Shown: in pieces, positions 1 through 7,640 of the stretch
Layout of the letters: every line of letters begins with the position of its first letter
How positions within the stretch are numbered: the first letter of the stretch is position 1
Source: a virus
Taxonomy: Monodnaviria > Loebvirae > Hofneiviricota > Faserviricetes > Tubulavirales
Direction: 5' to 3' (one strand)
Length of the DNA: 7,640 nt
Virus record (IMG/VR): IMGVR_UViG_2651869748_000001
Location: 1 to 7,640 of that record
Translations under genes and position numbers: made by a program
The notes under the pieces: model-generated
The model's database searches: none
What the model saw: the letters and a program-made list of their open reading frames with translations, nothing else
What the model was told of the DNA's origin: nothing

Positions 1-1254
<1,254 letters not shown>

Positions 1255-1334: not shown

Positions 1335-2549
<1,215 letters not shown>

Positions 2550-2912
2550 TTAGCCTCCCGGTATTTTCCCTGATATAAACAAGCGAATATATCGATAAAT
2601 ACGTTCCTTTGAGTGAAAAAGAAAAGAAATAAAATCAGCGGCGATAATGAGATTTGCGCAAAATGTAAAGTTATGGGGTAAATAGCTGAACGCAATAATA
2701 AGGTACCTGTTCATAACAGCAGAAGAAGAAACAGTATCAATAACAGAGTTTGCTGCAAAAATAAAACTTACAGCAAGAGAAATCGACATAAAAAGATACG
2801 TTAATGTACCCGCATAAGAAAAAGCAGAAGGAAACTTATTTCTGAGGAAAGGCAGCAGCCTCCTGAAAATAATAAGCACAAAAGAATAAATGAAATTAAT
2901 AAAAACAACCAT
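2550..2912 (-). CDS. pVI-like minor coat protein (virion tip, hydrophobic)
   Basis: 120-aa very hydrophobic ORF, ATG at 2910-2912 with GAGG upstream. Starts 2 nt after the gIII-like stop and ends 3 nt before the pI start. Size, hydrophobicity and position match Ff gene VI; no sequence-level homology was checked. Confidence 0.6.
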   Translation of the reverse strand: MVVFINFIYSFVLIIFRRLLPFLRNKFPSAFSYAGTLTYLFMSISLAVSFIFAANSVIDTVSSSAVMNRYLIIAFSYLPHNFTFCANLIIAADFISFLFHSKERIYRYIRLFISGKIPGG

Positions 2913-2914
2913 AA

Positions 2915-4222
2915 CTAAACCTCAGCATGACGCATCAGGGCGCGACGATAAACAAAATAAAGACGAAAAACAGTAAGTGCATAAATAAAATATTCCAGAA
3001 CAGGCCTTAACAACAAATCATACGCTGATGAAAAATCGGATGTGTCAACTGTAAAATGTACAGTCCCAATCACCGGAAGATAAAATGAAAAATCAACCTC
3101 AAGTGGCTGAGCCCCATCAGAACGATGATTACCAGGAAAAAATAACTTGTCGAAATCAATAAATAACCACTCCTTAGGTAGCTTATCAATAAACTGAGAG
3201 ATTAAAGAATCATAATCATTTGATGAATCACCCGATTCATTTTTAACAATATCAGACAGCTGGTCATCAAAAGTATTCAGTGAATTATTTACATCAGCCT
3301 GAGAAAAAGAAAAGAAACTATTCAAATCATTCACTGAAACCCAAATACGCTGCAACCAGCCAAGAATATCACCAAGCCAGCCATCGCCGGAGGAACTGCC
3401 ACCGCCTGAGTTACCACCACCTGAGCTGCCGCCGCCTGAGTTACCACCACCTGAGCTGCCACCGCCTGAGTTACCACCACCGGAACTGCCACCACCTATG
3501 CCACCACCGCCAGAACTGCCACCGCCAGAACTGCCACCGCCAGAGCTGCCACCGCCAGAACTGCCGCCGCCTGAGTTACCACCACCGGAACTGCCACCAC
3601 CTGAGCTACCGCCATCCTCCTTATCATCGGAGAATGCAGGATCTACAGCAACTGGTTTCCAGTTGGCAGTACAAACCGTATCATCATCGGGATTACAAAT
3701 AAAAGGATTGCCGGTTGCCTCATAAATACACCCCTGCACATTAACATAACGGGTCCCGTCATCACCTTTATAAACACCAGGAAAAGTCATACCATCAAGA
3801 ACCGGACGAGAAAGACAAATCTCGTCAGTTGGCGGCTTATTATATTCAGGTGTCAAATCCCCCTCACCACCCTGAAAATCAAGAGTGCAGGTTTCCCACT
3901 CTCGCTTCTCTAAATCCCAGACTTTATATGCGGACCACCGGGCATGGACAAAAACCCCAACGGTGGAAGGCGCGCTAGACGAGTCTGATAGCTTACTACC
4001 GCAATAATGAATTATTCCGGAGCACGCGTCGTAACCACTGGAACCACAATAAATATGACCAGCTCCCCTGGCTAATTTAATCGATGCTCCCGCATCTGAA
4101 TAAGCTGTTCTGCAGTTGAAACGGCCAAAACACTGAACAAGCTTATCCGGATCTTCTTTCTCCTCAGCAAAAGAAAGCGAAGAAAAGAACAAAAACAGAA
4201 ACGGAAAAATAAGACGAATCAA
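2915..4222 (-). CDS. pIII-like adsorption / minor coat protein with Gly-Ser linker
   Basis: 435-aa ORF starting with TTG at 4220-4222, 7 nt downstream of AGGAG. Signal peptide (MIRLIFPFLFLFFSSLSFA|EE), Cys-rich N-terminal domain, 76-aa (GGGSS/GGGNS)n linker and hydrophobic C-terminal anchor. Position after the gVIII terminator matches Ff gene III. Confidence 0.8.
   Translation of the reverse strand: MIRLIFPFLFLFFSSLSFAEEKEDPDKLVQCFGRFNCRTAYSDAGASIKLARGAGHIYCGSSGYDACSGIIHYCGSKLSDSSSAPSTVGVFVHARWSAYKVWDLEKREWETCTLDFQGGEGDLTPEYNKPPTDEICLSRPVLDGMTFPGVYKGDDGTRYVNVQGCIYEATGNPFICNPDDDTVCTANWKPVAVDPAFSDDKEDGGSSGGGSSGGGNSGGGSSGGGSSGGGSSGGGSSGGGGIGGGSSGGGNSGGGSSGGGNSGGGSSGGGNSGGGSSSGDGWLGDILGWLQRIWVSVNDLNSFFSFSQADVNNSLNTFDDQLSDIVKNESGDSSNDYDSLISQFIDKLPKEWLFIDFDKLFFPGNHRSDGAQPLEVDFSFYLPVIGTVHFTVDTSDFSSAYDLLLRPVLEYFIYALTVFRLYFVYRRALMRHAEV
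3386..3613. repeat. Tandem 15/30-nt repeat encoding the (GGGSS/GGGNS)n linker of the pIII-like protein
   Basis: About 15 consecutive near-identical 15-nt units (plus strand ctgagttaccaccac / ctgagctgccaccgc and variants) between 3386 and 3613, translating on the minus strand to GGSSGGGSSGGGNSGGG... Confidence 0.9.
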
Positions 4223-4242
4223 GCAAAAACTCCTGAAATGAT

Positions 4243-4266
4243 TAAAAAAGCGCCCCGAAGGGCGCT
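4243..4266 (-). terminator. Rho-independent terminator downstream of the major coat protein gene
   Basis: Minus strand reads AGCGCCC-TTCG-GGGCGCT followed by TTTTTT: a perfect 7-bp GC-rich stem (4249-4255 pairing with 4260-4266), a UUCG tetraloop and a U-tract (4243-4248). It lies 16 nt after the gVIII-like stop and before the gIII-like RBS. Confidence 0.75.
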
Positions 4267-4281
4267 GTCGTTAAATAACTA

Positions 4282-4542
<261 letters not shown>

Positions 4543-4548
4543 TTAAAA

Positions 4549-4719
4549 TTAATTAACAGCATCGCTGAACATCCGGCAGACCAGAGTGAAAATAACACCA
4601 AGACCAAAGCCAAGAAGCCAGCAGACAATCCAGACATACAGAACGGCCCAGTAAAGCTCCCCGTCCTGTACGCCAGAATTCAGTGCGGATAAAACACCGC
4701 TGAAATCAAATTCAGTCAT
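4549..4719 (-). CDS. Small hydrophobic virion protein (gIX/gVII-like)
   Basis: 56 aa from ATG at 4717-4719 (MTEFDFSGVLSALNSGVQDGELYWAVLYVWIVCWLLGFGLGVIFTLVCRMFSDAVN) with one transmembrane-like helix. The ATG overlaps the upstream ORF stop (ATGACTGA), suggesting translational coupling. The ORF track's longer version would need a GTG start at 4750-4752 with no RBS. Confidence 0.45.
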   Translation of the reverse strand: MTEFDFSGVLSALNSGVQDGELYWAVLYVWIVCWLLGFGLGVIFTLVCRMFSDAVN

Positions 4720-4852
4720 AATAACGCTGAACAGTAATGCTTTGTGAGTCACAGGCGCGAATCAGTTTTATTCCGATGCCAAAACCTGAAGAAAATAAAA
4801 TCATTGCAGGCGCAGCAAATAAAACAAAGTTCAGAAAATCAGCGTCAGACAT
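4712..4852 (-). CDS. Small hydrophobic virion protein (gVII/gIX-like)
   Basis: 46 aa from ATG at 4850-4852 (MSDADFLNFVLFAAPAMILFSSGFGIGIKLIRACDSQSITVQRYYD), with AAGG about 8 nt upstream. Begins 5 nt after the stop of the 141-aa ORF. The alternative ATG at 4904-4906 lacks an RBS and would overlap the upstream gene by 50 nt. Confidence 0.45.
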   Translation of the reverse strand: MSDADFLNFVLFAAPAMILFSSGFGIGIKLIRACDSQSITVQRYYD

Positions 4853-4856
4853 ATCA

Positions 4857-5282
4857 TCAGCCTTTTTCTTTACCTGCGGGCAGCGCACCCAGCGGCTGAC
4901 CGTCAAAACGTTTCATGGAGCCGGAAATAAAACGATACCAGACACCATGACGTTCAGAGCCTGTCGACCATGAGTTAACATCCACCGTGAGATAAACAGG
5001 TTTGCCCTGCAAATCAGGACATGAATTAAAAAATTTAAAATCCTCCTCAGTACAGGAAAATCGCTCATGCTCCTCACGGCGGACTTTTAATTTTCGGTCC
5101 TCATACGGATAGGCAATAACAATGGCATATTTGGGTTTAGCCTCAGGGTTATAATGAGAACCCGTGGGCTTTAACTCCTCATCATTTATGACAGTGGCGT
5201 GAATAAAAAATCCCGCCATTGTCATACCTGCAGTAAAACCCTCAGGGGAAGGAAACGGAAAACTGTCATAAATTTGATTCAT
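4857..5282 (-). CDS. Hypothetical protein in the gV position (possible ssDNA-binding protein)
   Basis: 141-aa ORF, ATG at 5280-5282 with GAGGAG 8 nt upstream, starting 30 nt after the rep stop. The CDS call is solid; the function is inferred from position only (between rep and the small coat genes) and I recognise no motif. Confidence 0.6.
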   Translation of the reverse strand: MNQIYDSFPFPSPEGFTAGMTMAGFFIHATVINDEELKPTGSHYNPEAKPKYAIVIAYPYEDRKLKVRREEHERFSCTEEDFKFFNSCPDLQGKPVYLTVDVNSWSTGSERHGVWYRFISGSMKRFDGQPLGALPAGKEKG

Positions 5283-5312
5283 AAATCAGACTCCTCAATG
5301 TTAAAAATTCAG

Positions 5313-7407
<2,095 letters not shown>

Positions 7408-7451
7408 TTTTGAGATGTATGATGAGGTATGAAAAAACAGAGGGGATATAT

Positions 7452-7640
7452 ATGCCAACAAAGCACATAAACGATGTTTTATGGAGAAAGGTAGAGAAAG
7501 AAACTGTAAAAGTGGTAACAACACTGGCAATACCAGTAAAAGATACCAAAGTTTTAGAATGGATAATCGCAAAAGGACTGGAGTCTATAACAGAAGATGA
7601 CTACAGGAAATTTGCAAAGACGGATGCAACAAAAAAATAA
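7452..7640 (+). CDS. Small hypothetical protein, candidate transcriptional regulator of the phage switch
   Basis: 62 aa from ATG at 7452-7454, with GAGGGG 6 nt upstream, ending at TAA 7638-7640 (the ORF track starts earlier at 7410 with a weaker RBS). Divergent from rep, immediately downstream of the operator-like palindromes. AT-rich, lysine/glutamate-rich, and I recognise no family; the regulator role is inferred from context. Confidence 0.5.
   Translation: MPTKHINDVLWRKVEKETVKVVTTLAIPVKDTKVLEWIIAKGLESITEDDYRKFAKTDATKK

Follow-up and report, generated by a model that had tools for sequence, protein, structure and literature searches.

The locus considered here lies in a filamentous (inovirus) prophage of Escherichia coli. 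Within the 7,640-nucleotide stretch of DNA that was analysed (the window), positions 2550-3385 are markedly poorer in G and C than the remainder. An earlier reading of this DNA, made from the sequence only, had taken these genes for a structural module that was transferred as a unit and that has a different origin from its surroundings. This raises the question of whether the genes in the block travel together, and whether their composition records where they came from.

Genes and composition of the AT-rich block

The minus strand carries all of the phage genes. From the left these are the pIV secretin (1..1224, Pfam Secretin), the Zot-family assembly ATPase pI (1335..2546, Pfam Zot), gVI (2550..2912), gIII (2915-4222), a gVIII-like major coat protein gene (4282..4542, PHROG 2186, virion structural protein) and a rep gene (5313..7313, Pfam Phage_GPA, E = 5.9e-49). 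A terminator-like GC hairpin with a T-run (4249..4266, minus strand; 7 pairs, 6 of them G-C) is located between gVIII and gIII; in Ff phages a terminator follows the coat gene. To the right of rep is a small plus-strand ORF in an AT-rich region (7326..7640). Its sole match was PHROG 5219, a family of unknown function, and no HTH family was matched in Pfam or PHROG; the immunity module named in the sequence-only reading is at most putative. The region right of rep (7314-7640) is an alternative module, which is present in L004/L005 and absent from relatives that carry an IS110 transposase in its place. Searches with the whole window gave no Rfam RNA family at E ≤ 1, and no megablast match among 50,697 phage records.

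The gVI ORF encodes 120 amino acids and sits between gIII and pI. It has no Pfam match. Its profile aligns with that of the pVI proteins of M13, IKe and If1 (hhalign 86.6%, E = 4.4e-6) over 91 columns that include the LP-N--C motif, and it matches PDB 8b3o 'Head virion protein G6P' (E = 1.4e-4) and PHROG 1944 (E = 2.5e-7). On the strength of these profiles we identify the gVI product, which is small and hydrophobic, as the inovirus minor coat protein pVI (G6P).

The gIII gene comprises three parts. The N-terminal part (3614..4222) contains a signal peptide, an uncharacterised first domain and then a g3p N1 domain of the TolA-binding type (about 3638-3847), as judged from Pfam and PDB. The N1 domain was detected by Pfam Phage_Coat_A (E = 1.1e-8, amino acids 126-171) and by PDB 1tol (E = 1.7e-13, amino acids 132-258), with matches to 1tol, 2g3p and 8b3o over amino acids 132-222. 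A Gly/Ser-rich linker of 75 amino acids encoded largely by GGN codons (3389..3613, GC 0.66) follows; in relatives its length is 81 to 174 amino acids. The C-terminal domain is made up of a conserved 'head' (3293..3388, GDGWLGDILGWLQRIWVSVNDLN...) and a variable core (2915..3292). The profile of this domain matches the pIII C-domains of Ff, IKe and If1 (89.6%, E = 1.9e-6, 66 columns) over the beta-hairpin and terminal helix. When PDB sequences were searched directly by HMM with the C-domain, f1 pIII was not found. An AlphaFold2 model of the domain had a pLDDT of 46.6 and Foldseek returned only PDB hits with E > 1; at this pLDDT the model shows helices, a hairpin (97-115) and a long terminal helix, in the same order as described for f1. 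The one profile-profile match (89.6%) and the architecture point to a capsid anchor of the Ff pIII type. From its N1 domain, linker and C-domain, the gIII product is assigned as the inovirus attachment protein pIII (G3P).

The block consists of gVI and the C-terminal anchor domain of gIII. Its GC content over 836 nucleotides (2550-3385) is 35.2% compared to 49.4% for all other positions of the window (chi2 = 60, p = 8.5e-15). The 836-nucleotide interval of lowest GC in the whole stretch starts at 2534 (GC 0.344), so the block lies on the global GC minimum. In greedy binary segmentation the block goes undetected, being offset by the GC-rich linker beside it; optimal segmentation was used instead. 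Without supervision, penalised-likelihood segmentation recovered 2561-3375 (GC 0.344) under two of the penalties and 2561-3345 under a third. Other segments included 3376-3620 (GC 0.661, the Gly/Ser linker), 5341-7325 (0.55) and 7326-7640 (0.314). By gene, GC is 0.336 in gVI and 0.369 in the gIII C-domain, as against 0.546 in rep, 0.501 in pIV and 0.488 in pI. The compositional contrast described in the sequence-only reading is borne out by these measurements: gVI and the gIII C-domain in the mid-30s, rep, pI and the secretin near or above 50%, and a regulatory end with its small ORF again AT-rich. The pattern is absent from the Ff, IKe and If1 genomes, whose composition is even throughout, and in M13, IKe and If1 the gVI and gIII C-domain genes dip by only 0 to -4 GC points.

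Exchange of gVI and the gIII C-domain among related prophages

We compared the window with 19 related E. coli prophages, some of which are probably one prophage held in two databases. Their backbones are 87-99% identical, and across them at least three cassette types of deep divergence take the place of the segment at about 2556-3290. In alignments with types B and C, identity drops from about 98% to about 45% at ~2550 and is regained at ~3290-3320, and the core of the gIII C-domain, which is type-specific in the 19 phages and is swapped together with gVI, is about 45-70% identical. Between cassette types the pVI proteins share 30-37% amino acid identity, compared to 97-99.5% for pI, the conserved flank of the cassette, and about 99% for Rep. 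Synonymous divergence (dS) is 2.05 in gVI, the variable half of the cassette, against 0.035 in pI, 0.017 in rep and 0.02-0.04 in the flanks overall. The dN/dS is 0.07-0.38, therefore the genes are functional; it is somewhat raised in the gIII C-domain (0.3-0.67).

The distance matrices of gVI and the gIII C-domain are strongly correlated with each other (r = 0.98) and weakly with those of rep, pI and the gIII N-terminal part (r = 0.11-0.19), while rep and pI correlate at 0.84. By type, gVI and the gIII C-domain show perfect linkage to each other and none to the backbone. The two halves of the cassette are thus mutually congruent and incongruent with the backbone, in keeping with the sequence-only reading. 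The gIII N-terminal part reassorts independently of the cassette, and one cassette type is found on differing backbones and N-domains. These sequence comparisons support the view that gVI and the gIII C-domain form one co-inherited, exchangeable module.

The module is bounded by two conserved junctions. The downstream junction (2544..2555, minus strand) contains the pI start codon and RBS and the gVI stop codon; in all cassette types alignment identity restarts exactly at the pI RBS/ATG. The upstream junction is the head of the gIII C-domain, which is situated inside the AT-rich block. Here about 100 nucleotides are conserved across all cassette types, with divergence beyond. BLAST comparisons place breakpoints repeatedly at 2546/2555 and at 3275-3404, over 14 loci, and the junction alignments agree. 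There are two head variants, and each was seen with B cores and with C cores.

Two or three cassette types occur together, at separate loci, in six complete genomes. In E100341, types A, B and C are all present on backbones that are 94-99% identical. A rule that co-resident prophages always differ in type was considered and rejected, as two loci of 2015C-4136CT1 both have type A' and two loci of E200086 probably both have type A.

The recurrent breakpoints and the polylysogeny suggest a mechanism. Related phages often reside in one cell, which would allow homologous recombination between them to swap versions of the cassette, with one crossover in the pI start region and the other in the ~100-nucleotide head of the pIII C-domain, both of which are conserved. 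The virion tip of f1 contains pIII C-domains and pVI, five of each, which interlock (PMC10175506), and this interlocking provides a rationale for the joint inheritance of gVI and the gIII C-domain. We infer that structural co-adaptation links the pair: they would always travel together because only matched pairs assemble in the pentameric tip. Physical linkage alone could also explain the joint movement, since the two are adjacent and have no conserved sequence between them.

The existence of at least three types may have a further meaning, which we think unlikely. The types could be a maintained polymorphism, in which incompatible ('orthogonal') tips let near-identical prophages share a cell. 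If so, orthogonal tips would prevent cross-capping of virions and mutual exclusion among co-resident prophages, and switching of the cassette would offer escape from interference by a resident relative. The co-resident types, A, B and C in E100341 among them, are compatible with this, but at least two genomes have one type at two loci.

Source of the low GC content

The cassette is low in GC by 16.2 points relative to pIV, pI and rep combined. Amino acid composition accounts for 8.6 of these points (53%) and synonymous codon usage for 7.6. Phe, Ile, Leu, Ser, Asn, Tyr and Asp, which have AT-rich codons, are abundant in pVI and in the gIII C-domain. Protein composition is not the whole explanation. 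M13, IKe and If1 have no comparable dip, so it does not by itself force one.

The synonymous part is seen most clearly at third codon positions. The frequency of T at this position (T3) is 0.55-0.58 in the module (gVI GC3 0.30, T3 0.55; variable core of the gIII C-domain GC3 0.28, T3 0.58), 0.50-0.52 in M13 genes and 0.43-0.51 in the ssb-like gene, the gIII N-terminal part (GC3 0.37, T3 0.49) and gVIII (GC3 0.345, T3 0.51). It is 0.29-0.36 in rep (GC3 0.574), pIV (GC3 0.505) and pI, and 0.26-0.36 when pI is represented by its distal portion. These three, in the case of pI the 3' half, are without the T-ending bias and have a host-like look. Along pI itself GC3 climbs gradually from 0.36 to 0.58. 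When stratified by amino acid, the synonymous usage of the module does not differ from that of the gIII N-terminal part, gVIII and the ssb-like gene (Mantel-Haenszel OR 0.78, p = 0.22), and does differ from that of pI (p = 0.004) and of rep, pI and pIV together (OR 0.39, p = 7e-10). A codon log-likelihood ratio grades from +0.22 in rep, the most GC-rich and host-like gene, to -0.35 in gVI and the gIII C-domain, host genes having +0.30 and Ff genes -0.30. The dinucleotide distance (delta*) of the module is 95 to the backbone, just over the null 95th percentile of 87, and 61 to its neighbours, where the null mean is 62.

Single-stranded DNA phages favour NNT codons, also in their coat genes (PMC3278643). 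This bias is shared, in an M13-like manner, by the module and the other structural genes here. It is not genome-wide, being low in rep, pIV and distal pI. Expression level was considered as a cause of the codon bias and rejected, as gIII, gVI, gI and gIV all lie past the terminator that follows gVIII and yet differ in GC3.

Our preferred reading, to which we give a probability of roughly 0.7, is that the AT-rich block is the gene pair of the 'pointy' tip, that its low GC has two layers, and that it is, independently of this, an exchangeable cassette with ancient versions. In the first layer, protein composition would give the block its sharp edges, and the apparent right edge at 3385 is due to the GGN codons of the gIII glycine linker. 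The second layer would be the T-ending codon bias of the ssDNA-phage type, common to the ssb-like gene, gVIII and the gIII N-domains. The compositional anomaly and the exchanged module are thus separable. They share a position here and are shown by different evidence, composition coming mostly from the proteins and from ssDNA-phage codon bias, and exchange being shown by comparison of relatives.

A reversed direction of change is possible, though less likely than not, and such a reading is compatible with the explanation that we prefer for the cassette. The T-rich structural block from the ssb-like gene to gVI would have the ancestral inovirus composition, while rep, pIV and distal pI would either derive from host-like or dsDNA-phage sources or have drifted towards the composition of the host over a long residence as prophage. 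Several findings agree with this. The most host-like codon usage is that of rep, whose product is a member of the P2-type Phage_GPA family. Four Rep families (Phage_GPA, Phage_CRI, G2P_X_C and Rep_trans) are found among lineages whose pI is related. The pIV gene has a mosaicism of its own (dS 0.33, compared to 0.035 in pI). Composition is even in the classical E. coli inoviruses, at about 40% GC and a T3 of about 0.5. In relatives from Enterobacter, Salmonella and Edwardsiella, too, GC3 of gVI and the gIII C-domain is below that of pI and pIV. However, pI is a core inovirus gene and its composition is intermediate and graded, not stepped. The related E. coli lineage L025 is the opposite, with an AT-rich rep and a gVI GC3 of 0.65, and rep and pIV have been traced to no source.

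It is distinctly improbable that the cassette was lately acquired from an AT-richer foreign phage whose composition it still bears, unameliorated. The distance of its synonymous usage from rep, pI and pIV, its fit to the Ff/IKe/If1 group of about 40% GC (-0.35 versus -0.30), the incongruence of its phylogeny with the backbone and the slight excess in dinucleotide distance would all be expected of such a donor mark. However, neither the synonymous usage nor the dinucleotides of the module set it apart from the adjacent structural genes, and amino acid composition accounts for over half of the GC deficit. Every cassette type, whether three or four alleles are counted, is equally AT-rich, although the types are mutually saturated in dS. 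A search of 5.8 billion proteins for pVI and the gIII C-domain returned E. coli entries only. Scanning of GTDB species-representative genomes confirmed no relative with the pVI profile and none with the pI profile, whose patterns are very specific and give weak evidence of absence. All ten IMG/VR matches have the same backbone. No donor lineage of matching composition was found outside E. coli in these proteins, GTDB representatives and IMG/VR. The sequence-only reading's claim of a co-transferred tip module stands, on the joint inheritance of the pair and its divergence from the flanks; its inference of a different origin from AT-richness does not, in view of the amino acid share, the codon bias held in common with the neighbours (p = 0.22) and the uniform AT-richness of the alleles.

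Rapid evolution in place, with diversifying selection on the tip proteins and AT-richness purely from protein composition, would account for the 8.6 points and the raised dN/dS in the gIII C-domain, but is very improbable given that dS is saturated inside the block (about 2) and 0.02-0.04 immediately outside it, that the transition falls a few bases from the pI start codon, that a given cassette type is combined with different backbones and N-domains, and that the synonymous component of the deficit is significant.

Relation to known phages

The Ff phages (f1, M13 and fd) share with the present phage the gene order gVIII, gIII, gVI, gI, gIV, a 120-amino acid hydrophobic pVI and a pIII with an N1 domain, glycine linker and C-terminal anchor. 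The proteins described here differ in being at the detection limit of sequence identity to Ff proteins. In addition, pIII has an extra uncharacterised domain ahead of N1, Rep is of the Phage_GPA type and not the Ff gII type, and the present phage is a prophage.

In the Vibrio phage VFJPhi the backbone is that of fs2 and a segment of 700 bp derives from VEJ/VCYPhi (PMC3731265). VFJPhi is similar to the present phage in its modular genome with a short block of separate ancestry. In contrast, the unit described here is pVI with the pIII C-domain, no fewer than three allelic types of it occur on one backbone, and its junctions are defined and conserved. A search of the literature found no description of an exchange unit of pVI and the pIII C-domain.

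Engineered pIII chimeras, which are used in phage display and host-range retargeting, have the receptor-binding domain swapped and the M13 C-domain kept (PMC12477597). In these chimeras, as in the natural proteins, a glycine linker joins an exchangeable receptor-binding part to the C-domain that integrates into the capsid (PMC12477597). The natural N-domains likewise reassort independently of the C-domain. Unlike in the chimeras, the anchor is also swapped, and always together with pVI. The natural unit of exchange, pVI and the pIII anchor domain between two conserved junctions, mirrors the tip complex seen by cryo-EM. At least three natural matched pairs thereby become available for finding out which contacts determine whether pVI and pIII fit each other. 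This is of practical use in phage display and in the retargeting of M13, where current designs leave the M13 C-domain unchanged. The prophages belong to a mosaic inovirus family found in human E. coli isolates, diarrhoeagenic ones among others, often in several copies per genome.

Gene content and the AT-rich block

The long open reading frames are all on the minus strand and follow the filamentous-phage gene order: Rep (5313-7313; Pfam Phage_GPA, E = 5.9e-49), an ssb-like protein of 141 amino acids (4857-5282), two small ORFs, a gVIII-like coat protein (4282-4542), gIII (2915-4222), gVI (2550-2912), pI/Zot (1335-2546) and the pIV secretin (1-1224). The gIII protein contains a g3p N1 domain at amino acids 126-195 (match to PDB 1tol, E = 1.7e-13), followed by a 75-residue Gly/Ser linker and a 157-residue C-terminal domain, with a profile match to the C-domains of pIII from M13, IKe and If1 (hhalign 89.6%, E = 1.9e-6). 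The 120-residue gVI ORF is identified as pVI by hhalign against classical pVI (86.6%) and by PDB 8b3o G6P (E = 1.4e-4). No deposited phage genome matches the window; among 5,426 complete E. coli genomes, 42, most of them from human stool, carry prophages 90-99% identical to it. A strong terminator-like hairpin, AGCGCCCTTCGGGGCGCT followed by TTTTT, separates the gVIII stop from the gIII start on the minus strand (4249-4266). In Ff phages (the M13/f1/fd group) a terminator at this position divides highly from weakly expressed genes.

The sequence-only reading had placed an AT-rich block at 2550-3385, comprising gVI and the C-terminal anchor domain of gIII (gIII-C), and its coordinates and GC figures are correct. 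GC content is 0.352 in the block and 0.494 elsewhere in the window (chi2 = 60, p = 8.5e-15), and the block sits on the global GC minimum among stretches of equal size. Optimal segmentation, run without annotation, gives segments at 2561-3375 (GC 0.344), 3376-3620 (0.661), 3621-5340 (0.444), 5341-7325 (0.550) and 7326-7640 (0.314). Sixty nucleotides inside the 3' end of rep (5341-5400) have a GC of 0.80 and form their own segment at the lowest segmentation penalty.

Exchange of gVI and gIII-C between relatives

The family set (n = 19) consists of the window, eight RefSeq prophages and ten IMG/VR contigs, the backbones of which are 87-99% identical. Compared with the window, the relatives show recurrent BLAST breakpoints at 2546/2555, 2943, 3275-3404, 3613, 3801 and 4229/4244. 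Alignment with the relatives L005, L007 and L008 shows 95-100% identity to position ~2520, ~45% from 2561 and 97-100% again at ~3320. At the downstream junction the exact point where identity returns is the ribosome-binding site and ATG of pI; the upstream junction is ~100 nt kept in all phages, encoding GWLGDILGWLQRIWVSVNDLN, the head of the gIII C-domain.

Between these junctions three main divergent types are found. Type A comprises the window, L001 and L009, with sub-variants A' (L002, L010) and A'' (L004), type B comprises L003, L007, L008 and L013-L017, with sub-variant B' (L018), and type C comprises L005, L006, L011 and L012. Between types pVI is 30-37% identical, compared with 97-99.5% for pI and ~99% for Rep. 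Synonymous divergence between the window and L008 is 2.05 in gVI, 0.035 in pI and 0.017 in rep. The gVI dN/dS is 0.07-0.38, the genes are therefore under purifying selection. Fast evolution in place is ruled out by this 60- to 100-fold dS contrast across a junction only a few bases wide, a pattern that reflects recombination.

Each gVI type occurs with its own gIII-C type without exception, and the two distance matrices correlate at r = 0.98. Neither matrix correlates with those of rep (0.11-0.12), pI (0.14-0.19) or the gIII N-domains (0.11-0.16); for rep against pI, r is 0.84. The cassette is not tied to particular gIII N-domains or even to a particular C-domain head, both of which reassort on their own. 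The proposal that gVI and gIII-C are co-transferred thus stands: composition differs significantly (p = 8.5e-15) and the phylogenies are not congruent (r = 0.11-0.19). These comparisons show that the two move together between otherwise near-identical backbones, as a cassette of several ancient types bounded by two conserved junctions.

Exchange would proceed by homologous recombination between related phages sharing one cell. Two or three cassette types coexist, at different chromosomal sites, in each of six complete genomes, so the opportunity for exchange is ample. E. coli E100341 (NZ_CM128606.1) carries three full prophages, L001, L028 and L029, of types A, B and C, with 94-99% identity in the backbone flanks; two of the three share an identical annotated Rep, and all three an identical ssb-like protein. 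The other five genomes hold two types each. In the f1 tip a pentameric pVI core is wrapped by five pIII C-domains (PMC10175506), mismatched pairs should therefore fail, and this interlocking may be what keeps gVI and gIII-C together. Adjacency of the two genes without internal homology would give the same linkage.

Mosaicism of filamentous phages is established, for example in VFJPhi (PMC3731265), and the glycine linker is used in engineering as a joint for receptor-binding domain swaps (PMC12477597). We found no account, in the open-access literature, of a naturally occurring allelic cassette that joins pVI to the anchor domain of pIII and has defined junctions.

Origin of the low GC content

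Each gene was recoded with pIV+pI+rep codon usage, holding amino acids fixed. The gVI and gIII-C deficit of 16.2 points divides into 8.6 from amino-acid composition and 7.6 from synonymous choice. Their proteins are rich in Phe (11.8% versus 4.9%), Ile, Leu, Ser, Asn, Tyr and Asp, and depleted in Gly, Ala, Arg, Glu and Pro. The total-GC edges are sharp because of protein composition and, on the right side, the GGN codons of the linker.

The synonymous component is genuine (G/C-ending codons, OR 0.39, p = 7e-10, Mantel-Haenszel stratified by amino acid) and takes the specific form of a coding-strand preference for T-ending codons. T3 is 0.55-0.58 in gVI and gIII-C, 0.50-0.52 in M13 genes, 0.51 in gVIII, 0.49 in the gIII N-domains, 0.43 in the ssb-like gene, 0.36 in pI, 0.32 in rep and 0.29 in pIV; A3 in the module is 0.13-0.15. 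NNT preference is a reported signature of ssDNA phages (PMC3278643). A codon log-likelihood ratio of flanking E. coli genes against M13/IKe/If1 genes declines by degrees from rep (+0.22) through pIV (+0.12), pI (0.00), the ssb-like gene (-0.15), gIII-N (-0.20) and gVIII (-0.27) to gIII-C and gVI (both -0.35), with host genes at +0.30 and Ff genes at -0.30.

This bias is not specific to the module: with stratification by amino acid, synonymous usage there is no different from that of the adjacent gIII-N, gVIII and ssb-like genes (OR 0.78, p = 0.22); GC3 in pI climbs gradually, starting at 0.36 over the first 100 codons and reaching 0.58 by its end; and a GC-normalised dinucleotide signature separates the module only marginally from the backbone and not at all from the neighbours. 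At the codon level, the bias is a feature of the structural block as a whole.

All cassette types are alike in gVI (GC 0.31-0.34, GC3 0.21-0.33) and gIII-C (GC 0.35-0.37, GC3 0.24-0.33). The only homologues found for pVI and gIII-C are E. coli proteins, and species-representative genomes of other taxa yielded none. Among more distant inoviruses, reached via pI homologues, those of Enterobacter, Salmonella and Edwardsiella have gVI and gIII-C GC3 0.17-0.28 below pI and pIV. One distant E. coli lineage shows only a small GC3 difference between these genes and pI/pIV, and another, L025, has no dip but an AT-rich rep. Unlike the window, M13, IKe and If1 are uniform at ~40% GC and show no dip. Low tip-gene GC thus recurs, but not in every case, among temperate enterobacterial inoviruses with host-like assembly and replication genes. 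The idea that AT-richness marks one recent import is not supported, as every type has the same composition and the dip recurs in other inoviruses; once decomposed, the anomaly itself is ordinary.

Rep is at least as likely to be the compositional outlier, and four Rep families accompany related pI genes. The separately mosaic pIV may be another. Replication proteins in L022-L027 (pI 39-74% identity) are Phage_GPA, Phage_CRI, G2P_X_C and Rep_trans; in L023, pI and pIV are separated by a TraX-family gene and a second ORF.

Other variable regions

The AT-rich 7326-7640 segment (GC 0.314) and its small ORF are present in L004 and L005, and an IS110 transposase directly follows rep instead in L001, L003, L008 and L028, so this segment is also an alternative module. 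The ORF matches only PHROG 5219 (unknown function) and no DNA-binding family; the immunity function named in the sequence-only reading is putative. Two integration styles occur within the family: the IS110-carrying copies are at varied chromosomal sites (yoaA, hcxB/ybiB, murP), and L005, L006, L007 and L029, without IS110, adjoin hipBA/ydeT, in the dif region, often as tandem copies.

The gIII linker (3389-3613) is a repeat of 81 to 174 residues among relatives (L001-L018). Its antisense strand holds long spurious ORFs (e.g. 3280-3702, plus strand), and the L002 RefSeq annotation has gIII in fragments around it. The first gIII domain (3848-4165, amino acids 20-125), upstream of N1, is highly variable and has no family match. 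Its dN/dS is 0.79 against L008 and 1.54 against L005, with backbone dS ~0.02-0.04, which suggests positive selection or micro-recombination in this putative receptor-binding domain.

For the window and L008, dS is 0.33 in the pIV block (1-1335) and 0.035 in pI, and breakpoints fall at ~1266-1335; L006 and L007 have an extra small ORF between pIV and pI. A DUF2726-domain gene, possibly another accessory gene of this element, lies just past pIV, outside the window, in several relatives (L001 3153-3533, L003 3115-3495, L008 2830-3210, L028 2576-2956, L027 3079-3627).
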